The position numbers and the translations under genes are program-made. Positions 1 through 9,781 of a DNA stretch of 64,000 nucleotides are shown here, piece by piece. The notes beneath the pieces are model-generated. The model was not told where the DNA came from, searched no databases, and worked only from the letters and a program-made list of their open reading frames with translations. The stretch's first letter is position 1, and the number at the start of each line of letters is the position of its first letter. Origin of the DNA: Dehalococcoidia bacterium (GTDB taxonomy: Bacteria > Chloroflexota > Dehalococcoidia > Lucifugimonadales > UBA3495); NCBI GenBank assembly GCA_965237745.1, contig OZ250156.1, positions 95,596-159,595 of the forward strand, in the 5' to 3' direction.

Positions 1-109
1 AGAGCCGTGGCACGCCCCAGACGAGGCCCCCCGCCGCCGTCGCGGCCTCCCATCCCGGCCACGCGGGGCGACCGTTCGCCACGGTGGATTCAAGTATCAG
101 TACGCCCTT

Positions 110-313
110 TTGGCGGGAATCGGCCTCATAGTAATCGGCGCGATTTTCCAGTGGTTGTACTTCTTCTTTGCGGGATTGGCACTGCTGGTGGCGGGATACG
201 TCATGTACTACCGCGCCCCCCGCACCAGCGGCGGCGCCCCGCGGCCCCCCCAGATGTGGCGCGGCCGCTCAATAGAGCCGGACGATCCCCCGGGCCGCCG
301 GCGACGCCGGTAG
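110..313 (+). CDS. hypothetical small membrane protein (67 aa)
   Basis: ORF with a long hydrophobic stretch (GIGLIVIGAIFQWLYFFFAGLALLVAGYVMYY) followed by an Arg/Pro-rich tail. No family recognised. Overlaps GC-driven shadow ORFs. Confidence 0.3.
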   Translation: MAGIGLIVIGAIFQWLYFFFAGLALLVAGYVMYYRAPRTSGGAPRPPQMWRGRSIEPDDPPGRRRRR

Positions 314-329
314 CAGCCCTGTCCGAGCG

Positions 330-1223
330 CTAGGCCCCGGTTGTGGGTTGCGCCTCTTTCAGGAAGTGTTCGGCCAGCGCCAGCACCAGATTGCCCATGT
401 GCGGATGGTCCGGCTCGACGTCCACCTTCAGTCCGTTCTGCAGCAACCGGCGCGTGCAGACCGGCCCCACCGACGCGACGGCGACCGTTTCTGAGTTGAG
501 GCAACGGCGCAAAGTGTCTTCGAGGCCTGACTGCGCCGCGATGGACAGCAGGCTGGGCACCTGGGGCTGGCTGGTGAAGGCGACCGCGTCCACTTCGCCC
601 GCCTCCAGACGGGCGATCAGGTCCAGCACGGGCGACAGGTCGTCGGGCAGTCCCCAGCTGTATAGGGACACCTCCCGCACATTCGCTCCCCGCTCCCGCA
701 GCGTTCGGGTCAGCAGGTTGTTGGGACCGCCGTAAGCTTGGACCGCCACCTCGCGACCGGCAAAGTCCACGTTTTTCGCTGTCTCGATTAGGTCCTCGGT
801 GGCGAACGGTTCGGGCGGCATGAGGTCGATGCGCACCTTGTTGCGTCGCAGTACCGAGGCGGGCTTGGGACTGCGCGCGATGACGGTGACGCGGTCCAGG
901 GCGGCTAACAGTTCCTTCCCGCGGCCCAGGGCCTCGGCGGCTCCGAACAGAGCGCGAGTTCCCACCCCGGTCTGCAGCACTGCGATGTCCACCCGCCCCG
1001 CGCACAGGTCGTCGATCAGTCCGGCGACCTCGGGGGTGTCGGTGTTGTAGACCTCCTGCAGCACCGGCGCGGCCAGTGGGATGCCGCCGTGCCTCTCCAC
1101 CAGCGCCCCCATCTCCGACTGCATCCGCGCTTCGATGCAGGCAATGACTTTTCCGTCCAGCGACGCTGCCAAGGCGCCTCCCTGTGTTCTGAACTCGCCG
1201 AAAAGCAGTCCGTTCGCCCTCAC
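330..1223 (-). CDS. uroporphyrinogen-III synthase (HemD)-like protein
   Basis: 297-aa ORF whose two-lobed alpha/beta pattern recalls the HemD family (VLQTGVGTRALF, AVAFTSQPQV). Co-oriented with and 71 nt downstream of the siroheme sulfite reductase. Confidence 0.55.
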   Translation of the reverse strand: MRANGLLFGEFRTQGGALAASLDGKVIACIEARMQSEMGALVERHGGIPLAAPVLQEVYNTDTPEVAGLIDDLCAGRVDIAVLQTGVGTRALFGAAEALGRGKELLAALDRVTVIARSPKPASVLRRNKVRIDLMPPEPFATEDLIETAKNVDFAGREVAVQAYGGPNNLLTRTLRERGANVREVSLYSWGLPDDLSPVLDLIARLEAGEVDAVAFTSQPQVPSLLSIAAQSGLEDTLRRCLNSETVAVASVGPVCTRRLLQNGLKVDVEPDHPHMGNLVLALAEHFLKEAQPTTGA

Positions 1224-1294
1224 TTGTTCAAAGGACGAACGGACAATGGTGTCTTATTCCCGGTTTACGCCAGGTTCATTGGAAAACCCTAGGA

Positions 1295-3136
1295 CTATAC
1301 GGCGCATTCACCCTCGCCGCGCTCCAGCTTGTACAGGTTGGTGCGTTCCCAGTCGACGTACATATCGGAGCCGGGAGCCGCGTCCTGAGCCGACTTTTCG
1401 GCGGCGATTGCAACCTCGGTCAACTCCTCCAGCCCCACCCGGTCGAGGAACTGGTTGAACTTTTCCGACTCATCGGTGCGGTTGGCCTGGTAGTAGGTCA
1501 CAATGGTCTTCAGCACGCCGGGAGCGGCCCTGGCAGGGACCTTCACGCGCGGTATGCGGGTTCCAACGCGGGAGTCCTCCACCCGGTTGTCGCCATAGTT
1601 GCCGCCCAGGAACAGCTCGTAAGCCGGGACCTGCTGTCCGTCGGGGCCCTTCAGCGCAGCACCGTGGAAGCCAATGTTGGCGATGTGATGCAGGCCGCAG
1701 CCGTTGGGGCAGCCGGACATCTTGATGCGGATGTCCTTCACGCCCTGGTCGTCCAGCAACTCGCCGCCCCAGTTGTCCATCTCATCCCGCAGCGCCTTGG
1801 CCAAGCCCATTGAGGACGTGATGCCCAGTTTGCAACTGTCGGTGCCGGGGCAGGACACCACGTTGGTGATGGCGCTCGCGTCGGCCTCGGCCAGCCCGAT
1901 GCGGTCCAACTCCTCCCAAACGGTGTGCAGTGAGCCCTCTGGAATGAAGCGCAGCACTAGGTTCTGCTCTTGGGTGGTCCGGGCGCGGCCCCCGGTGTGG
2001 CGGCGCATGATGTCGGCCAGCGCGCGGAATTGGGTGCCGTTGAGATCACCGCGTTCCGGCTTGACGGTGATAGCGTAGTAACCCTCCTGACGCTGCCGTT
2101 CCACATTGGTTTCCCGCCACCTGTGGAACTCCTCGGAGGCTCCGGCTCCGTTGCCGCTGATGGCCGGCGGGGGAGTCTCCCGGAGCAGGTCGTCCACTTC
2201 CATGTACGGAGCCGGGTCGATGGGGCCAATCTTTTCCAGTTCCGCGTCGACCATGGTGCGGAATTCGTCAAGGCCGATACGGTCGATCAACACCTTGAGC
2301 CGCGCCATCATCCGGTTCTTGCGCAGCATGTCGGCGTTATTGAATACCGTCCAGATGGCCAGGGCCACCCGCAGGTAATCGTCGGTGGAGACGAATTCGT
2401 ACAGCGGCTTGGCCAGTCGGGGCATGATGGAGGTGCCGCCGCCGACGAACACTTTGAAGCCCCGCTGCTCCTCTCCGTCCACCTCGCGAACCTGCGACAC
2501 GTAGGTCAGGTCCTGGATGGCTGCCGATACGTGGTCGCGGCTGTCTGTGCCGGTGAAAGCCGACTTGAACTTACGCGGGAAACCCTGCGTGATGGGATGA
2601 CGGACTCCGAAACGGACGTATGCCGCCAAGTAAGGCGTCGGGTCAAACACTTCATCAGGATCGACGCCCGCAAAGGGGGACCCCACCACGTTGCGCACCG
2701 TGTTGCCACAGGCCTCGCGGGTGGTCAGCCCCACCGCGCCCAGCAGCCGCAGCACCTCGGGACACTCGGCAAGAGGGATGTGATGAAACTGCACATTTTC
2801 GCGAGTGGTGATATGCCCCTTCCCCAACGGAGCGTAACTCTCGGCCACCTCACCCAGTCCCTCCATGCTTTCCGGGGTGACGATGCCGCCCGGCACCTTA
2901 ACTCGGATCATCTGCACATCGGCCTGCCGCTGACCGTAGACGCCCTGCTTCAGACGGAAAGGCGTGAAGGTGGTGTTATCCTGCTCTCCGGCCTCAAAAG
3001 ACGCGGACTGCTCCTCAAGCCGCACGATCTCCTCATCCATGAACGGGATGATTGACTGCGACGACCTGGCTAATTCCAGACTGTCTCGGTGAATGTCCTC
3101 TTGGGTACGCTGATGGCTAGAGGTCTGACTACTCAA
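1295..3136 (-). CDS. ferredoxin-type sulfite/nitrite reductase hemoprotein (siroheme, 4Fe-4S)
   Basis: 613-aa ORF with Cys clusters CPGTDSCKLG and SGCPNGCGLHHIANIG typical of NirA/Sir enzymes. TTG start at 3136 lies 3 nt after GGAGGAG. Confidence 0.85.
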   Translation of the reverse strand: MSSQTSSHQRTQEDIHRDSLELARSSQSIIPFMDEEIVRLEEQSASFEAGEQDNTTFTPFRLKQGVYGQRQADVQMIRVKVPGGIVTPESMEGLGEVAESYAPLGKGHITTRENVQFHHIPLAECPEVLRLLGAVGLTTREACGNTVRNVVGSPFAGVDPDEVFDPTPYLAAYVRFGVRHPITQGFPRKFKSAFTGTDSRDHVSAAIQDLTYVSQVREVDGEEQRGFKVFVGGGTSIMPRLAKPLYEFVSTDDYLRVALAIWTVFNNADMLRKNRMMARLKVLIDRIGLDEFRTMVDAELEKIGPIDPAPYMEVDDLLRETPPPAISGNGAGASEEFHRWRETNVERQRQEGYYAITVKPERGDLNGTQFRALADIMRRHTGGRARTTQEQNLVLRFIPEGSLHTVWEELDRIGLAEADASAITNVVSCPGTDSCKLGITSSMGLAKALRDEMDNWGGELLDDQGVKDIRIKMSGCPNGCGLHHIANIGFHGAALKGPDGQQVPAYELFLGGNYGDNRVEDSRVGTRIPRVKVPARAAPGVLKTIVTYYQANRTDESEKFNQFLDRVGLEELTEVAIAAEKSAQDAAPGSDMYVDWERTNLYKLERGEGECAV

Positions 3137-3168
3137 ATTCTCCTCCGCGAATATCCTGCCAAAAATTT

Positions 3169-3207
3169 AACAAAAGAAAACCCGCCGACTATATATGCAT
3201 TGGCGGG
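3169..3207 (-). terminator. intrinsic terminator inside the sulfite reductase leader (attenuator segments 3:4)
   Basis: On the minus strand, CCCGCC (3207-3202) pairs with GGCGGG (3186-3181) and is followed by TTTTCTTTTGTT (3180-3169). It lies between the promoter and the RBS of the reductase gene. Confidence 0.6.
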
Positions 3208-3255
3208 CGATCAGGACTGGTTGCGTCGACTGGCCGACGCAGCTTTTTCACCCAC

Positions 3256-3309
3256 CTATGTGGGCGGACAAGAGCAACAAAGAGCGGCGTCAAGCCAATT
3301 TATATTCAC
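3256..3309 (-). CDS. candidate leaderless leader peptide VNINWLDAALCCSCPPT (17 codons, 3 Cys)
   Basis: GTG lies 6 nt after the -10 hexamer. Codons 11-14 are TGT TGC TCT TGT. The TAG stop sits in the loop of hairpin 3266-3249. There is no Shine-Dalgarno, hence the leaderless inference. Confidence 0.45.
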   Translation of the reverse strand: MNINWLDAALCCSCPPT

Positions 3310-3315
3310 TAGGGT

Positions 3316-3344
3316 AATATACTCTGGGGTCTAACATTAGTCAA
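3316..3344 (-). promoter_or_regulatory. sigma70-like promoter of the sulfite reductase leader
   Basis: Minus strand: TTGACT (3344-3339), 17-nt spacer, TATATT (3321-3316). Confidence 0.55.
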
Positions 3345-3453
3345 TCGCCACTGTCGCCAGGGCAATCGCGTTTTAGCTGCGCAGGACTTTGAGGAGGTAG
3401 TCCTCTCTCCAGCCTGCTTGCAGGCGTTTGCCCTGAATTCCCACTTTCAGGCT

Positions 3454-3481
3454 GGTTTCCTGCTTCAGGTTTCCTGCTGCA
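3454..3481. repeat. 14-bp tandem duplication inside the transposase
   Basis: GGTTTCCTGCTTCA followed by GGTTTCCTGCTGCA. Removing one unit restores the family-like C-terminus QQETSLKVGIQGKRL. Confidence 0.85.
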
Positions 3482-3542
3482 GCAGGTTGTGGGAGATCTG
3501 CCTTAGCGTAGCCATGTTCTGCGCGCTGTGGTCCAAGCGCAT

Positions 3543-3568
3543 CCGGCTCTGGTCCTCGGCTCTGGTCC
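3543..3568. repeat. 13-bp tandem duplication inside the transposase
   Basis: CCGGCTCTGGTCC followed by TCGGCTCTGGTCC. Removing one unit restores EDQSRMRLDHSAQNMATLRQISHNLLQQET. Confidence 0.85.
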
Positions 3569-4257
3569 TCCCGGAAGGTTACCTCCAAGCTCCAGTGCAG
3601 CGAGTTCTCAATGCTCCAGTGGGTCCGCGCCGCACCCAGCAACTGCTCAGCCGACCCTGCGAGGCTGCTGATGTAGTACTTGGACTGCACTGTTGTGCCC
3701 GTCTCCGTCTCACGGTGCCCCACCACCTTGACCACGGACCGCAACCCGGGCCAGTCCCTCCCGGTGCTCAGATATTCCAGACAGCCCGGGTCGCTGATCG
3801 CCCAGCACTCCCGCCGCTCAATGCGCCCGTGCCCCTTGTTGAGTGTGGTGGCATAGTCGTGGGGTACACCGTCAAAGCCCGCCTCCTCCGCAACCTCGAA
3901 CAGGTCCCGCAGGTCCTCGTACAGCCGTCCCTGGTTCTTTTTGACCGCCAGCAGATAGTCGGCCTCCCGCTCCAGAATCCCTTGGGCTATCTCCTTCTGG
4001 CACCCCATGGCGTCTCTGGTTACGATGCACCCGCTCAACTCCAGCAGCTCCAGCAGCCGGGGTATGGCGGTGATTTCGTTGGACTTCCGGTCGGTCTTCA
4101 CCTGTCCCAAGGTCAGGGTGTTGGCCGAGCCCCAGGCGCTGACCAGCTGGATGGCCTGCTTGCCTGCCCTTTTGTCGTGGGAGCGGCGCACCGTTTGGCC
4201 GTCGATGGCCACCACCTCTCCGGGCAGCAGGTCTGCCACCCCTTGGCTCCACTCCAC

Positions 4258-4293
4258 GAAGCACTCTCGGAAGCACTCTCGGAAGCACTCTTG
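4258..4293. repeat. 12-bp x3 tandem repeat inside the transposase
   Basis: GAAGCACTCTCG GAAGCACTCTCG GAAGCACTCTTG, encoding ECFRECFRECF. Confidence 0.9.
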
Positions 4294-4817
4294 GAACCGG
4301 TCCGGATCCAAGCGGGAGAACACGTCGCCGAAGGTGTCACGGGACGGGATGCCCTTGGGCAGATCCAGAAAGGAGCGGAACCATTCCTCCTTGCTCTTGC
4401 CGAAAAGCTCCACCTAGACCCAGGAGTCCGCGCCGCAGATGACGGCGCAAATGGCGATGGTGATGTCGTCCAGCAACTGGTGCCGCTTGCACCGCTCAAT
4501 CCCCGGGTCCTCCAATTCTCCAAAACACTCCATGACGGACGCTCCCCTCCCTTTCCTCATCACTCCCCTCTATCGTCACCCACATCCTCGGTCTCCCATC
4601 CAACGACAAGTCTATCCTCTATAACGCGATTGCCCTGACACTGTCGGGCATTTCCCGGCAGGTTTGTGAAAGTTCTGCGCCGTGGGCTGGACCACTCCGC
4701 AATTATGCCAATACGCTGGGCCGCGGGCTTGCCAGCGCCCCGCCCGCCGGGTAACTTTACTCCACAGTTTGAAGACTCGCGACAAGCTCTTTCGTAGAAA
4801 CAACAGGAGGCACTGGC

Positions 4818-5984
4818 ATGAGGTCTACGGCGGACGTGGTGGTCATCGGCGGAGGCGTGATGGGATGCAGCATACTCTTCAACTTGGCCAAACAGGGCAT
4901 AACCAACACTGTGCTGCTGGAAAAGGACATTCTCAACGGTGGCTCCACCGGTCGCAGCCAGTCCATCTGCCGCATGCACTACTCCAACCCGGTGACAGCC
5001 ACAATGGCATGGGAGAGCCTCAAGGTATTCACGAATTTCGAGGACATCGTCGGCGGTCCGTCGGGGTTCACCGAGACCGGCTACCTGGTGGTCGTCAACG
5101 AGGAAGACCGGCCTGGCCTGGAATTCAACTGTGCCATGCAGGTCCGCCTGGGTATCGATACCATGGTGGTGACTGCCGCAGATCTTGCCGACATCGCGCC
5201 GATGGTTTCCGTTACCGAGGACGAGGCCATGGGGTGGGAGCCACAGTCGGGCTACGCAGACCCCTATCTGGTCACGTCGTCCTACGCCAATTCTGCTCGA
5301 GATTTGGGAGCCGAGATAAATCTGGGCTTACAGTCCACTGGCATAGTGGTCGAGAACGGGCGAGTCCGCGCCGTCGACACGCTACAGGGCCGTATCGAAA
5401 CGCGGGCTGTGGTCATGGCCGCCGGGCCTTGGTCGAAGGCCGAGCTGGCCAAGGTGGGTGTGGACGTCCCTTTGGTAACCGTGAGGCACCAAGTGGCGTC
5501 CCTGGCCCGGCCCGTCGACCGGTTGCCATTGCATCCCGCCGTGGGCGACATTGCGCAGTCCTTCTCCTTCCGCCCCGACGGCTCGAGGATGACACTCATG
5601 GGTTTCGGCGACGACGAGGAGGCGGATGTGGAGACCTACAACCAGCTGGCGGGGCTGGACGATATGGGGTTGGCTAAGGAGAAGCTGGCGCGTCGCATCC
5701 CGGCCATGTCGGATGCCTACTTCCGCGGTGGTTGGGCCGGACTGTTCACCACCACGCCCGACTGGCACCCTATCCTGGGCCGGGCTCCGGGCATCGATGG
5801 GCTATATTGCGCGGTAGGATTCAGCGGCCACGGTTTCAAGCTGTCGCCCATGATCGGCCAGACCATGGCCGAGCTGGTTGCCCAAGGCGAAGCTACAACA
5901 ATCGACATCTCACCGCTCCGCTTCAGCCGCTTCGAAGAGGGTGATCTGATGGAGTCCAGCTACCGCTATCGGGTGCTTGCCTAG
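4818..5984 (+). CDS. FAD-dependent oxidoreductase (DAO / sarcosine oxidase beta-like family)
   Basis: 388-aa ORF with N-terminal dinucleotide fold VVVIGGGVMGCSILFNLAKQG. AGGAGG RBS precedes the ATG. Confidence 0.75.
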   Translation: MRSTADVVVIGGGVMGCSILFNLAKQGITNTVLLEKDILNGGSTGRSQSICRMHYSNPVTATMAWESLKVFTNFEDIVGGPSGFTETGYLVVVNEEDRPGLEFNCAMQVRLGIDTMVVTAADLADIAPMVSVTEDEAMGWEPQSGYADPYLVTSSYANSARDLGAEINLGLQSTGIVVENGRVRAVDTLQGRIETRAVVMAAGPWSKAELAKVGVDVPLVTVRHQVASLARPVDRLPLHPAVGDIAQSFSFRPDGSRMTLMGFGDDEEADVETYNQLAGLDDMGLAKEKLARRIPAMSDAYFRGGWAGLFTTTPDWHPILGRAPGIDGLYCAVGFSGHGFKLSPMIGQTMAELVAQGEATTIDISPLRFSRFEEGDLMESSYRYRVLA

Positions 5985-6032
5985 AAAGCCTGTCCCGGCG
6001 ATGCTTTCCATCCTTGCGAGAGAATTCGGGCA

Positions 6033-7319
6033 ATGGCCTCTCGGGAGATGGCTATGAAGACGGCCCTCCGGGGCGATCCGCCTGCCGTCATGTTGCCTCG
6101 TGTCTTCCGGAGCGCCCTCCGAGGTTTCTCGCAGGGACTGATGGCGTTGGCTCTGGTCGCCCTGCTGCTGTGGGCGGGAAAAGACTACCGGCCCACGGAG
6201 GCGGAGGCCGCGATAGCGTCCTATCGTTTCAATCTGCTGGCTTGGGAAGCGGGCAACGTGTTCGACAAGTGGTACCACGAGCTACTCGCCCTGCTCCCAT
6301 GGAACTCACCCTTGCCTCCAGAACAGAGGACGGCTTTGGCAGCGGAGTTTTTCCGTTTGGGCGAGGAGGAACGGCGTCTGGAAGGGGAGCTATTTGCTGC
6401 CGAGGCGACGCCGAGAGCTGACGAACTTGAACGGCAACTCGCCGAAGTCCATAATCGCCATCTAAGCCTGCGGACCATCGTAGAGCAGACCGTTGAACGA
6501 GAGGTCAGTTCAATCCTGGTTGATGAGGGCTTCTCCTCCCGCATCGGCGTTATCCTTCCGCCGGTGGACACGGTGCTCGGTCGCTCTCCCGCCTTGCTGG
6601 TGACCTCCCCTCGCGATCGTATATTCAGGCAGAGCAACACACTGTTGCGCCACGGCGTCCGCCCTGGTGACCGCACCATGCTGGAGGAAGCCACGCTGCG
6701 GGAACGCAACCTCTCGGCCATCGTCGTCGACACCGGGGGGGTCGGCACCTTCCCCAGTGTGGTTTCCGCAGAGGGCAGCTTGCACTTCGCAGTCACAACC
6801 GTGGCCCACGAATGGCTGCACAACTGGTTCTTCTTCCAACCGCTGGGACAACATTTCTGGGACAGCCCCGAGATGACCACCCTCAACGAGACGGCAGCCA
6901 CCCTGGGCGGCTGGGAAATCGGCGACCGGGCCTACGAAATCATGACGGGAATCGTGTTCGACCGGAAACCACCAGCACCGCCAGCGGAACCCGACCCCAA
7001 CGCTTTCGACTTCAACGCCGAGATGCGGAAGACCAAGCAGCGGGCTGAGGAGTTGCTGGCCCAAGGCCGCATAGAAGAGGCGGAGAGTTACATGGAAGAA
7101 CGGCGCTTGCAATTGCTGGAGCGGGGCTACCGAATCCGTAAGATCAACCAGGCATTTTTCGCCTTCTACGGCTCCTATGCCACCAGCGCCGCTTCAGACA
7201 GCCCCATCGAGGAGCAACTCCGAGAACTGCGGGCTCGAAGCGGGTCTTTGGGGGAGTTCCTGAGGGTTGTGGCCCAATTCTCGACCTACCAAGAATTCCT
7301 GGACCATCTTGAGGAATAA
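6033..7319 (+). CDS. hypothetical membrane-anchored protein with HExxH motif (putative zinc peptidase)
   Basis: 428-aa ORF with an N-terminal hydrophobic helix (LMALALVALLLWAG) and HEWLHNW at about residue 270. Family not recognised and the start codon is uncertain. Confidence 0.45.
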   Translation: MASREMAMKTALRGDPPAVMLPRVFRSALRGFSQGLMALALVALLLWAGKDYRPTEAEAAIASYRFNLLAWEAGNVFDKWYHELLALLPWNSPLPPEQRTALAAEFFRLGEEERRLEGELFAAEATPRADELERQLAEVHNRHLSLRTIVEQTVEREVSSILVDEGFSSRIGVILPPVDTVLGRSPALLVTSPRDRIFRQSNTLLRHGVRPGDRTMLEEATLRERNLSAIVVDTGGVGTFPSVVSAEGSLHFAVTTVAHEWLHNWFFFQPLGQHFWDSPEMTTLNETAATLGGWEIGDRAYEIMTGIVFDRKPPAPPAEPDPNAFDFNAEMRKTKQRAEELLAQGRIEEAESYMEERRLQLLERGYRIRKINQAFFAFYGSYATSAASDSPIEEQLRELRARSGSLGEFLRVVAQFSTYQEFLDHLEE

Positions 7320-7371
7320 GGCAACCTGGGAACCGCCTGCACTTTCTAAAGATTTTCCGATAGAAAGCCCT

Positions 7372-7773
7372 CTAGCTCGGCGCAGACTCTTCGATGTCCT
7401 CCAAGATATCTGCCGGCAACTCGACGCCGCGTTTCAGTAGGTACTTCAGGGCTTGCTCACGACCTTCCTGCCGACCTTCCTGTCGTCCTTCCTGCCGACC
7501 TTCCTCCACACCCTCACGGCGGGCTTTGTCCATGTCCTTCTTGCGTTGCGCCAATGCCCATAACATCCTGACCAATCCCTCCAGTAGCAAGATACTCGAG
7601 CCGTATACAATGCCGCCAAGTGGCACTACTTGGCCTGTCAACTCCAAGGTGTCACTGTCATTCCACCATCGGCCTGCTCCGACGGAAAATGCCAGAAGCC
7701 ACGTCACTCCCAAGGTGCCAAGCGGTAAGATCGCCAAGTGCAACTTGAGCCAGTTATCCCTGATCCAATCCAC
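7372..7773 (-). CDS. hypothetical membrane protein with EGRQ tandem repeats
   Basis: 133-aa ORF with two N-terminal hydrophobic helices and a charged C-terminus EGVEEGRQEGRQEGRQEGREQALKYLLKRG. Confidence 0.45.
   Translation of the reverse strand: MDWIRDNWLKLHLAILPLGTLGVTWLLAFSVGAGRWWNDSDTLELTGQVVPLGGIVYGSSILLLEGLVRMLWALAQRKKDMDKARREGVEEGRQEGRQEGRQEGREQALKYLLKRGVELPADILEDIEESAPS
7461..7508. repeat. 12-bp x4 tandem repeat (codes for EGRQ units)
   Basis: GACCTTCCTGCC / GACCTTCCTGTC / GTCCTTCCTGCC / GACCTTCCTCCA. Confidence 0.85.
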
Positions 7774-7885
7774 AAATCAAGTATAACATTGCCCTGAATT
7801 CGGACTCGCCCGTCATTTGGCCTGACATGCTGCGCTCAGGCAAACTTATGAGTGAGACGACCAGAAGACCAGAACAGGGTAATCC

Positions 7886-9781
7886 CTATCGCAACACACG
7901 TTCGTCGCCGTTGCGGCGGGTAATCTGCTCCTGGTCCATTCGCTCCAGCAACGGCAGAATGTACTTGCGGCTGGTGTTGAACAGAGTCCGAGCCTCTGCC
8001 ACCGTGATGTTACCGTGCTCCCGCAGGTGCTCCACGATGCGTCCGGTCATATCCCGGTACGCCGTGGCGGTGAACACCACCGAGTCGCCTACTCGGACCA
8101 CCTTGCCTTGCTCCACCAACGCACCGAGCAGTTCGGCTTCCAGCGGCTGGTCAGTCGGTGGCGAATATGGTTCCTGCTCCAGTGACTGCAGGTATCGTGT
8201 GGCCTGCTGCTCCATCCGCGGGGTGAACTGTACTTCGTGTCCGGGCAGCCGCACTGCCTGGCCGTCTTCTACCACGAACCCCTCTTCGCTCAGACGCGCC
8301 AAGGCCCGCAGGTACACCGGCTGCGTCAGCCCCAACCGGCTGCGAATCTCCTGGGCAGGCGCGCCCTTTCGCAGCGGGTACTGATCGTGATACGACCGCA
8401 ATGCGCCGGCCATTCTGCCCTTGAGGGTTCCCCATCCCAGAGCCGAATAAACCACTGCGTCGCTGTCGCTGGCTAGGTCACCCAAGGCCACCAAGTCACC
8501 CTCATCCGCTAGGCCTACCGCCCGCTCCAAGGCTTCCTCCACGGGCAAATTGGCGCGTCGAGAGAGGTCGGTCAGGCCACACGGCCCCCACTGCTCTGCT
8601 ACGGTGACGATCACATCTTCGTCGGCCCCTTCGTCCAGCAGCATCAGCCGTTCCGACACGTCAGCATCGAAACGGCGGTGGCGGCGTCGAGGGTTGGGGT
8701 CCACCACCTGCCCGCCGCCCAAGGTGCTTTCCGACGAACGCACCACGAAGTAGTCTCCCTTGACTACTGGTAGCGACTCAGACAGCAGCAGTTGCACCCA
8801 CCCCTCGGCCCCGGCCCCCAACTCCTCGGCGTCCAGCAGACGCACCCGGGCCGGCGACTCGCTGGTGAAGAGGTAGAAGGTAACACCCTCGTTGTGTTTC
8901 AGGGGGTGGGGTGCGTCGTTCACCATCCGCACGCGGACGTCCAGCCTCCGCGCCGGACGCAGCCAGCCCGGTGAGGTCAGAATTTCGCCCCGTTGTATGT
9001 CGTCTCGGGAGATACCCGACAAGTTAACCGCCAGCCGCACGCCAGGCTCGGCACTGCTCACCTTTGTTTTGTGGCTCTGCAGCCCTCGAATTCTGGCCCG
9101 CTGCTGCGATCCAGCCAGTTCGATTTCCTGGCCCACTGCCAGCGAACCATCAATGAGAGTTCCGGTGACCACCGTGCCAAAGCCGGAAATGGTGAAACAG
9201 CGGTCGATGGGGAGGCGGGGCCGGCCCAGGTCTCGTCTCATCTCCGTGTCGTCCAGGATCTGGTCGATCATTCCCCGGAGTTCGTCCAGCCCCGAGCCTG
9301 TGTAGGCCGATACCCCTACCATGGGGCAGCCCTCAAAGGATGTGCCCTGCAGCGTGTCCTCCACCTCGGCCTTGACCAGCTCAACCAGCTCTTCGTCAAC
9401 GAGGTCGGTCTTGGTCACCACCACCATCCCCCTGGTTACCTGAAGGATATCGAGGATGGCAAGATGCTCGCGGGTCTGGGGCATCACGCTTTCGTCAGCG
9501 GCCACAATGAGCAGGGCCAGGTCGATGCCGCCCACGCCGGCCAGCATGTTCTTGATAAAGCGCTCGTGGCCGGGCACGTCGACGATGCTGACCTCGCGGC
9601 CACTGGGCAGCGTCATCCAAGCGAAACCCAGATCGACCGTCATCTCCCGCTCCTTCTCCTCCGGGAGCCGGTCGGGGTCGATGCTGGTCAGCGCCTTGAC
9701 CAACGTGGACTTGCCATGGTCAACGTGTCCCGCAGTGCCGATAACGTACATAGCAGCTCTAACTAGCTCCCGCGCCGTCAA
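7886..9781 (-). CDS. selB: selenocysteine-specific translation elongation factor SelB
   Basis: GTPase motifs GTAGHVDHGKSTL, DVPGHERF and TKTD, followed by a long winged-helix-type C-terminal extension. About 620-630 aa. The true start is probably the ATG at 9751 (MYVIGTAGH). Confidence 0.8.
   Translation of the reverse strand: MTARELVRAAMYVIGTAGHVDHGKSTLVKALTSIDPDRLPEEKEREMTVDLGFAWMTLPSGREVSIVDVPGHERFIKNMLAGVGGIDLALLIVAADESVMPQTREHLAILDILQVTRGMVVVTKTDLVDEELVELVKAEVEDTLQGTSFEGCPMVGVSAYTGSGLDELRGMIDQILDDTEMRRDLGRPRLPIDRCFTISGFGTVVTGTLIDGSLAVGQEIELAGSQQRARIRGLQSHKTKVSSAEPGVRLAVNLSGISRDDIQRGEILTSPGWLRPARRLDVRVRMVNDAPHPLKHNEGVTFYLFTSESPARVRLLDAEELGAGAEGWVQLLLSESLPVVKGDYFVVRSSESTLGGGQVVDPNPRRRHRRFDADVSERLMLLDEGADEDVIVTVAEQWGPCGLTDLSRRANLPVEEALERAVGLADEGDLVALGDLASDSDAVVYSALGWGTLKGRMAGALRSYHDQYPLRKGAPAQEIRSRLGLTQPVYLRALARLSEEGFVVEDGQAVRLPGHEVQFTPRMEQQATRYLQSLEQEPYSPPTDQPLEAELLGALVEQGKVVRVGDSVVFTATAYRDMTGRIVEHLREHGNITVAEARTLFNTSRKYILPLLERMDQEQITRRNGDERVLR

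Follow-up and report, generated by a model that had tools for sequence, protein, structure and literature searches.

A leaderless poly-Cys leader upstream of a putative sulfite reductase operon in Dehalococcoidia is a candidate cysteine-sensing transcription attenuator

The locus considered here raises the question of whether an operon for sulfite reduction may be adjusted to the supply of cysteine through the RNA that precedes it. It lies in a 64,000-nucleotide (nt) stretch of DNA from a Dehalococcoidia bacterium (assembly GCA_965237745.1, contig OZ250156.1, positions 95,596 to 159,595 of the forward strand), referred to below as the window. In this window, positions 3169-3344 contain a promoter, a small open reading frame (sORF) with several Cys codons and a set of alternative hairpins, located upstream of genes for a siroheme-dependent reductase (sir) and a HemD-like protein (hemD). 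An initial annotation of the window had proposed that this region is a cysteine-sensing attenuator. To our knowledge, cysteine was long missing among the amino acids sensed by leader-peptide attenuation. From comparisons of related sequences, we conclude that the element most probably attenuates transcription in the manner of trp, with a ribosome that translates a leaderless or near-leaderless sORF as the sensor of cysteine, and that it would increase cysteine synthesis when charged tRNA(Cys) becomes scarce. The strongest evidence that the layout is not due to chance is that the entire arrangement recurs at 80 of 80 sir loci, and the strongest functional argument for cysteine as the sensed signal is that two unrelated cysteine-synthesis operons carry this leader.

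Architecture of the leader in the window

All coordinates given for the leader and for sir refer to the minus strand of the window. The near-consensus promoter of the initial annotation is found in the sequence where it had been placed, with a -35 hexamer TTGACT (3339-3344) and a -10 hexamer TATATT (3316-3321) separated by a 17-nt spacer. It was the sole promoter detected by a scan of positions 2800-3800, with 10 of 12 matches, as against 0.3 promoters expected from shuffled sequences. Six nucleotides, ACCCTA, lie between the -10 box and a GTG at 3309-3307, and the transcription start is predicted at about 3310-3309. The GTG opens the leaderless ORF VNINWLDAALCCSCPPT (3256-3309, stop included), whose codons are GTG AAT ATA AAT TGG CTT GAC GCC GCT CTT TGT TGC TCT TGT CCG CCC ACA TAG. 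Codons 11 to 14 thus read as had been reported, with putative regulatory Cys codons at positions 11, 12, and 14 (TGT TGC [TCT] TGT, 3268-3279) and a TAG stop at 3258-3256.

The three proposed pairings hold at every coordinate as well. Segment 1 (CGCCCAC, 3260-3266), which overlaps the Pro-Pro-Thr codons, is the 5' arm of hairpin 1:2 and pairs with GUGGGUG (3255-3249) around a four-nt loop, AUAG, that holds the UAG stop. Segment 2 (GGUGGGUG, 3249-3256) is either the 3' arm of this hairpin or the 5' arm of a putative antiterminator, in which it forms eight base pairs, two of them G.U, with segment 3 (CGCCCGCC, 3202-3209). Segment 3 in turn is either the 3' arm of the antiterminator or the 5' arm of the predicted terminator, where GCCCGCC (3208-3202) pairs with GGCGGGU (3186-3180) around a 15-nt loop, followed by UUUUCUUUUGUU (3180-3169). 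Segment 4 (GGCGGGU) and the T-tract together occupy 3169-3186 as 3' arm and tail of the predicted terminator (fold of -15.1 kcal/mol, z = -2.57). Between segments 2 and 3 we identified a central hairpin that was absent from the initial annotation (GCGUCG/CGACGC, 3240-3223, -11.5 kcal/mol) and that the antiterminator would enclose. A terminator scan missed the window terminator; as the scan permits loops of at most 8 nt and the loop here has 15, the region was folded instead. The minimum free energy (MFE) structure of the whole leader (-48.3 kcal/mol, z = -2.8) consists of hairpin 1:2 and the terminator, while the fragment from segment 2 to segment 3 folds at -28.2 kcal/mol (z = -3.65; 0 of 200 shuffles equal it) into the 2:3 helix around the central hairpin.

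In the mechanism that we propose, transcription would start on the GTG (3309) or no more than about 2 nt from it, and a ribosome would load on the emerging 5' end. With plentiful Cys-tRNA(Cys), the ribosome would reach the UAG in the loop of hairpin 1:2, where its footprint would cover segment 2; if it departed after the UAG, hairpin 1:2 would form instead. In either case segment 3 would be free to pair with segment 4, transcription would terminate in the T-tract near 3175-3169 to yield an RNA of about 140 nt, and sir-hemD would not be transcribed. With scarce Cys-tRNA(Cys), the ribosome would stall when Cys codon 12 or 14 has entered its A site and would cover segment 1, and segment 2 would pair with segment 3 before segment 4 was made, blocking the base of the terminator and allowing read-through into sir-hemD.

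A ribosome extends downstream to about 12-13 nt beyond the first base of the codon in its A site. Judging from such footprints, a ribosome with Cys codon 14 (3270-3268) in its A site would cover segment 1 (3266-3260) and leave segment 2 free, and one with the UAG (3258-3256) in its A site would cover segment 2 (3255-3249). In other clades the last Cys codon is contained in segment 1 itself (ACC UGU CC...), and in some of them the stop codon is located just past segment 2 (tails PPKSGAG* and YIGIR*), a placement that still fits the model.

Conservation of the leader at orthologous sir loci

A scan with the Sir protein, using one genome per species, yielded at least 80 loci, all from Dehalococcoidia, SAR202, or other Chloroflexota metagenome-assembled genomes, with Sir identities of 68-89% for the relatives. 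The counts out of 80 given here refer to 79 orthologous loci and the window; one incomplete locus (L034) was left out. As the loci were found through the Sir protein and not through the leader, their upstream regions constitute an unbiased sample.

At all 80 loci, a promoter composed of TTGAC[A/T/G/C] and TAnnnT, with a spacer of 16-18 and nearly always 17 nt, is followed after 6-9 nt by an ATG or GTG start codon. This gap leaves no space for a Shine-Dalgarno (SD) site, and an SD-like 4-mer is found ahead of the sORF at 17 of the 80 loci and ahead of sir at 71 (GGAGG at 3142-3146 in the window). An orthologous sORF is present throughout, with 16-22 codons, of which one to six near its end are Cys codons (three or more in 70 of the 80). 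Cys accounts for 19.9% of the residues among 77 distinct leader peptides, and 294 TGY codons are in frame, versus 51 and 13 in the other two frames. Both Cys codons are employed (TGT 191 times, TGC 103 times). The sORFs measure 48, 51, 54, 57, 60, or 66 nt, every insertion or deletion being a multiple of three. The ratio of nonsynonymous to synonymous differences (pN/pS) in their N-terminal part, outside the hairpin, is 0.50, compared with 1.02 and 0.64 for the other frames.

The RNA elements recur in the same order. Hairpin 1:2 spans the end of the sORF in all loci, with a sequence and register that differ by clade; the central hairpin is present in the relatives but variable (74.8% of cells paired); and a terminator hairpin followed by a T-run occurs in 80 of 80 loci, with energies of -12.0 to -23.1 kcal/mol, at 26-251 nt from sir (median, 42.5 nt). 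The initial annotation had described the layout as that of classical ribosome-mediated attenuation, and it had suggested examining the upstream regions of sir orthologues for Cys-rich sORFs and alternative pairing. Both are present there, and each element of the layout that can be tested in sequence is conserved across the 80 loci.

The same leader type might control translation instead. In the mycobacterial mode, stalling at the Cys codons would free the sir SD site from pairing with the Cys-tract RNA, and termination would play no role. The closest experimentally studied system, the leaderless poly-Cys sORF Ms5788A, works in this translational manner: its Cys-tract RNA pairs with a downstream SD site, translation is regulated, and transcription beyond the leader does not respond to cysteine (Canestrari et al. 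2020, bioRxiv 10.1101/834739; Mol Microbiol 114:93). The leaderless poly-Cys sORF is common to that system and the window. However, folding of the full leader pairs the sir SD site only locally with the start of the coding region and not with the Cys tract, and the terminator-to-sir spacing of 26-251 nt implies that no fixed SD-sequestering helix is conserved. Nor does translational control need the strong, covarying terminator with its T-run that all loci possess. We therefore give a translational mechanism very little probability, and favor transcription attenuation.

Another possibility is that the sORF stands as a small gene of its own, with its own terminator, and encodes a Cys-rich peptide that has a function, for instance in metal binding or redox chemistry. 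Its Cys codons would then serve the peptide and not a sensing role, and sir would be expressed by constitutive leak-through. Mild purifying selection on the N-terminal parts, as judged from the pN/pS value, fits such a gene, as do clades that conserve entire peptides through synonymous changes, e.g., MLKVNGNPCASCCTCTCYIGIR and MR[LF]EDDLF[HY]LC. Outside the Cys block, though, the peptide sequence is not conserved between clades, and the conserved CPPT tail is encoded by the RNA that forms an arm of hairpin 1:2, where synonymous sites covary with segment 2. Moreover, the interval from the terminator to sir is free of promoter-like sites at all 80 loci, whereas the same criterion finds one before every sORF. 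Transcription would thus reach sir only through the terminator, which must be passed. As both operons that bear the leader make cysteine, a free-standing peptide gene is in our view highly unlikely, and a cysteine attenuator accounts better for these features.

Pairing of the leader RNA

We aligned 78 elements and split them into the clade of the window (26 sequences) and other clades (52 sequences); two alignments were used because hairpin 1:2 and the 2:3 helix shift register between clades. Applied to all 78 elements, RNAalifold recovered only the terminator, in which pairs switch between GC and AU (45/32 and 33/29).

In the clade of the window, 87.8% of cells are paired in the structure made of hairpin 1:2, the central hairpin, and the terminator, versus 33-44% in slid controls, and for the 2:3 helix (GGYGGGUG:CGCCCGCC) the paired share of cells is 90.6%. 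The other clades show 86.8% pairing in hairpin 1:2 and the terminator together, versus 39-51% in slid controls, with 59 double-change cells compared with 29.8 in shuffles (0 of 500 reach the observed value). The antiterminator of these clades, GGG.GCAGG:CCUGC.GCCC, is paired in 95.1% of cells versus 37-57% when slid, and one pair shows compensation between GC and UA (34/6); 0 of 500 shuffles reach the observed value. The order of synthesis was mimicked by masking segment 1 in transcripts in which segment 4 was not yet made; in 75 of 78 loci, segment 2 then pairs, in the MFE structure, with the terminator 5' arm at its base.

A second operon with the leader

To look beyond the sir loci, metagenomes were scanned with the pattern TGYNNNTGTCCNCCNACATAGG, which matched at least 120 contigs. 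Among the matches listed, sir is found 118-165 nt downstream of the motif in at least 16 contigs, with Sir identities down to 59%. At least 38 contigs among the matches listed instead encode a 281-amino-acid (aa) ThiF/MoeB/MoeZ-like adenylyltransferase (E1) followed by a 316-aa cysteine synthase (CysK/M), identified by Pfam matches to ThiF (1e-81) and PALP (3e-72) and by the NCBIfam cysKM model (356 bits, cut-off of 344). These contigs are among L081-L200 (e.g., L158, with the motif at 5628 of the oriented locus, L091, and L104). At least 10 further contigs among the matches listed carry the architecture and end before the downstream genes. About 56 of the 120 listed matches lack the promoter and leader architecture and were taken as chance matches.

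In the leaders of the ThiF-cysK/M operons, which are built from the same parts, a TTGACA-17-TAGACT promoter is followed after about 10 nt by an ATG, and the encoded peptides include MITTFSELTCACTCPPT. Next come a hairpin (UGUCCGCCC/GGGCGGGCA) and a long terminator with the base GCCUGCGC/GCGCAGG, and this base overlaps the segment complementary to segment 2. All of these leaders have the tail C[ST]CPPT*, which is not an independent observation, as the scan pattern demanded it. No ThiF-like or cysK/M gene occurs in the window, and a scan for further leaderless Cys sORFs found none in the 64-kb window or at the 80 genome loci.

The initial annotation had argued that the regulatory logic is coherent in that the genes under control feed cysteine synthesis, and the presence of the same leader design before a ThiF-like E1 and cysK/M operon bears this out. 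The leader also ties the E1-cysK/M pair to cysteine synthesis, and the position of the E1 gene beside cysK/M suggests that cysteine may be made by way of a sulfur-carrier protein. The leader is directly preceded in these loci by a gene for an Rrf2-family regulator; a thioesterase gene is also located upstream, and nusA-infB downstream. The presence of the Rrf2 gene may indicate that control is also exerted at a second level, that of the DNA.

The Rrf2 gene could also be taken to favor a terminator switch operated by an RNA-binding protein, or else by a ligand as in a riboswitch, in which the ORF would be incidental. The alternative-hairpin layout is indeed generic to riboswitch expression platforms. 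Rrf2 proteins, however, bind DNA. Rfam, with its riboswitch, T-box, and other leader families, returned no match at E ≤ 1 for positions 1-8000 of the window and none at the gathering score in seven related loci. Clades differ in the length and sequence of the interval that separates segments 2 and 3, which leaves no conserved aptamer-like core, and both the fixed start codon 6-9 nt after the -10 box and the in-frame Cys codons of all 80 loci would be unexpected in an untranslated RNA. A ligand- or protein-operated switch is for us the least probable of the explanations weighed here; a ribosome translating the sORF remains the likely sensor of cysteine.

Relation to known leader systems

The element resembles the trp, his, leu, thr, pheA, and ilv attenuators in its short leader ORF rich in codons for the end product, in the choice between pairings 1:2 and 3:4 (terminator) and pairing 2:3 (antiterminator), with a stop codon placed so that a terminating ribosome would mask segment 2, and in its intrinsic terminator with a U-tract shortly before the first structural gene. 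Unlike the enterobacterial attenuators, it would sense cysteine, its leader ORF has no SD site and starts 6-9 nt after the -10 box, its hosts are Dehalococcoidia/SAR202-type Chloroflexota, and the genes that it would regulate code for a sulfite reductase and a HemD-like protein.

With the mycobacterial poly-Cys sORFs (e.g., Ms5788A and Rv2334A) it shares a leaderless AUG or GUG start, a Cys tract near the C terminus, a location before cysteine or sulfur assimilation genes, an occurrence at several operons of one organism group, as in a regulon, and the proposed sensing of charged tRNA(Cys). It differs from them by its conserved terminator and antiterminator, the lack of SD sequestration, the lack of sequence homology, and the phylum. 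The authors of the mycobacterial study stated that uORF (upstream open reading frame)-mediated attenuation for cysteine was previously undescribed (Canestrari et al. 2020, bioRxiv 10.1101/834739).

A Cys-codon attenuator with a terminator has been predicted in Rhodobacterales, where uORFC-8-2 precedes cysS (Brewer et al. 2021, PMC8632094). There too the Cys codons of the uORF are conserved, a stem contains or adjoins them, and a terminator stem with a U-run follows. The gene regulated there is the tRNA synthetase gene cysS of alphaproteobacteria, and the uORF, which was not described as leaderless, has two tandem Cys codons at positions 14-15; the present leaders, in contrast, precede two biosynthetic operons, sir-hemD in Chloroflexota genomes and ThiF-cysK/M on metagenome contigs, and have up to six Cys codons. 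In Actinobacteria, short candidate leader ORFs that carry Cys-codon runs close to the stop were detected upstream of cys operons; no conserved terminator hairpins were seen there, and the authors suggested Rho-dependent termination (Seliverstov et al. 2005, PMC1262725). In the present leaders, unlike those of Actinobacteria, a Rho-independent terminator is universal.

As we read it, the element works like a trp attenuator and shares the leaderless poly-Cys sORF with mycobacteria, and it is a member of neither described family. A literature search found no description of such an element in Chloroflexota/SAR202 or upstream of a sulfite reductase gene, in agreement with the initial annotation, which knew of none for this operon type or kind of genome. 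The sole tested Cys case is the mycobacterial one, which is translational, and the sole terminator-type case, that of cysS in Rhodobacterales, is a prediction. What would be new is a terminator-type Cys attenuator with a leaderless sORF, in a different phylum and before two cysteine-synthesis operons. In concept, such an element would broaden the classical mechanism, and its lineage is of ecological importance. It offers a testable handle on the control of sulfur assimilation in largely uncultivated ocean and sponge Chloroflexota, and a natural part of small size that unites leaderless translation and an intrinsic-terminator switch.

Evidence against attenuation and identity of the reductase

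Several observations weigh against a cysteine attenuator, the first of which concern the antiterminator. The 2:3 pairs of the window's clade barely vary, which amounts to conservation and not covariation. When segment 2 is shuffled, it still pairs with the terminator arm in 74% of trials, with a mean energy z of -1.4. As segment 2 is G-rich and segment 3 C-rich, and shuffled sequences pair too, composition explains much of the 2:3 pairing. Swapping partners between clades gave a weak signal, with duplex energies of -13.98 kcal/mol for native 2:3 partners and -13.24 kcal/mol for swapped ones. Of the three pairings for which the initial annotation had suggested a covariation test, 1:2 and 3:4 do covary, whereas 2:3 is conserved with limited compensatory change.

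When segment 1 is masked in a transcript that includes segment 4, the equilibrium fold still favors the terminator, which rules out a purely thermodynamic switch. Since the antiterminator is not the equilibrium fold, the switch would have to act kinetically, as does the antiterminator of the trp attenuator. The terminator of the window itself (-13.9 kcal/mol, 7-bp stem, 15-nt loop) is among the weakest of the 80, with an A/C mismatch (in 3180-3208) where relatives pair G-C or A-U.

Other reservations concern translation. Translation of the sORF, stalling at its Cys codons, and cysteine-dependent read-through are all three inferred from the sequence. Footprint considerations suggest that in the window's clade segment 1 would lie beyond the reach of a ribosome stalled at the first Cys codon (3279-3277). 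Leaderless genes have been predicted in only some Chloroflexi genomes, where they make up about 4.7% of genes (PMC3160421).

Finally, 10 of the 80 leaders have only one or two Cys codons. They include a sub-clade (L045-L048 and L058) whose leader peptide, MR[LF]EDDLF[HY]LC, has one or two Cys codons and is encoded about 110-235 nt upstream of sir. Over codons 1 to 11, L046 and L047 differ at seven synonymous sites and in no amino acid, which points to selection on the peptide itself; a different sensing mode, through the nascent peptide, possibly operates in this sub-clade. Separately, two of its members, L045 and L048, have an insertion of about 40 nt in the interval between segments 2 and 3.

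Nascent-peptide arrest could in principle be the general mechanism, with the C-x-C-P-P-T tail or MRLEDDLFHLC responding to another signal (sulfide, metal, the redox state, or EF-P) and not to a simple shortage at the Cys codons. The tail C[ST]CPPT* is conserved in 54 of the 80 sir leaders, Pro-Pro motifs slow ribosomes, and the acidic peptide of the sub-clade has been kept through synonymous change. Clades without Pro-Pro (tails YIGIR* and LSP*) nonetheless keep the Cys codons and the RNA switch, and the Pro codons form the arm of hairpin 1:2 that covaries with segment 2, which is sufficient to explain their conservation. As a general explanation, arrest seems to us to have only the slimmest chance of being correct; it is possible in some sub-clades, and it is not needed for the data.

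The attenuator model can also be extended. The extended version would be the first terminator-based cysteine attenuator regulon, comprising at least sir-hemD and ThiF-like E1-cysK/M and widespread in marine SAR202/Dehalococcoidia, in which leaderless initiation would enforce transcription-translation coupling, the C-x-C-P-P-T-stop tail would be a pause or arrest peptide timing the ribosome on segments 1 and 2, and the MRLEDDLFHLC sub-clade would have shifted toward nascent-peptide sensing. This full combination has some chance of being right, although we think it unlikely.

A last reservation arises from the identity of the first gene of the operon. This gene (1295-3136, minus strand, TTG start at 3136) encodes a predicted siroheme/4Fe-4S sulfite reductase of the NirA/SirA type, 613 aa in length, with Pfam matches to NIR_SIR (3.4e-46) and NIR_SIR_ferr (4.4e-36). 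The second gene (330-1223, minus strand) encodes a HemD-like uroporphyrinogen-III synthase (Pfam HEM4, 1e-36), and the sir-hemD order is repeated in the relative L001. The domains thus agree with the siroheme sulfite reductase-HemD-like operon of the initial annotation. The reductase, however, scores below the cut-off of every NCBIfam sulfite or nitrite reductase model, its best match being "NirA family protein" with 238.5 bits against a cut-off of 523. Sulfite rather than nitrite is its putative substrate, mainly on account of the Cys leader and the HemD-like neighbor. Conversely, the leader supports naming this NirA-like enzyme a sulfite reductase.

Insertion sequence and other local features

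An insertion sequence (IS) of the ISAs1 family, 1,280 bp long, occupies positions 3358-4637 of the window, with 19-nt inverted repeats (CAGGGCAATCGCGTTTTAG) at 3358-3376 and 4619-4637. It encodes a DDE_Tnp_1 transposase and is transcribed in the direction of the leader. Relatives without the IS carry other genes at this place, e.g., a Cu/Zn superoxide dismutase gene in L001. The IS was considered as the source of the promoter and ruled out: its end at 3358 lies 13 nt upstream of the -35 box, and IS-free relatives have the same promoter. Transcription that continues out of the IS could reach the attenuator as an unregulated addition, and, together with the weak terminator, the adjacent IS may lead to looser control in this genome.

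Within the 3' part of the transposase gene, a 13-nt sequence (AGGACCAGAGCCG) is apparently duplicated in tandem at 3544-3569 (minus strand). The listed transposase ORF begins within the DDE_Tnp_1_assoc domain (profile positions 41-86 of 88), so that this copy of the IS may be defective. Repeats of another kind occur in the relative L023, where G-rich imperfect tandem units (GGGGCGGGATGYGG...CGGGTT...) lie between the terminator and sir in a spacer of about 250 nt, the longest of the 80.

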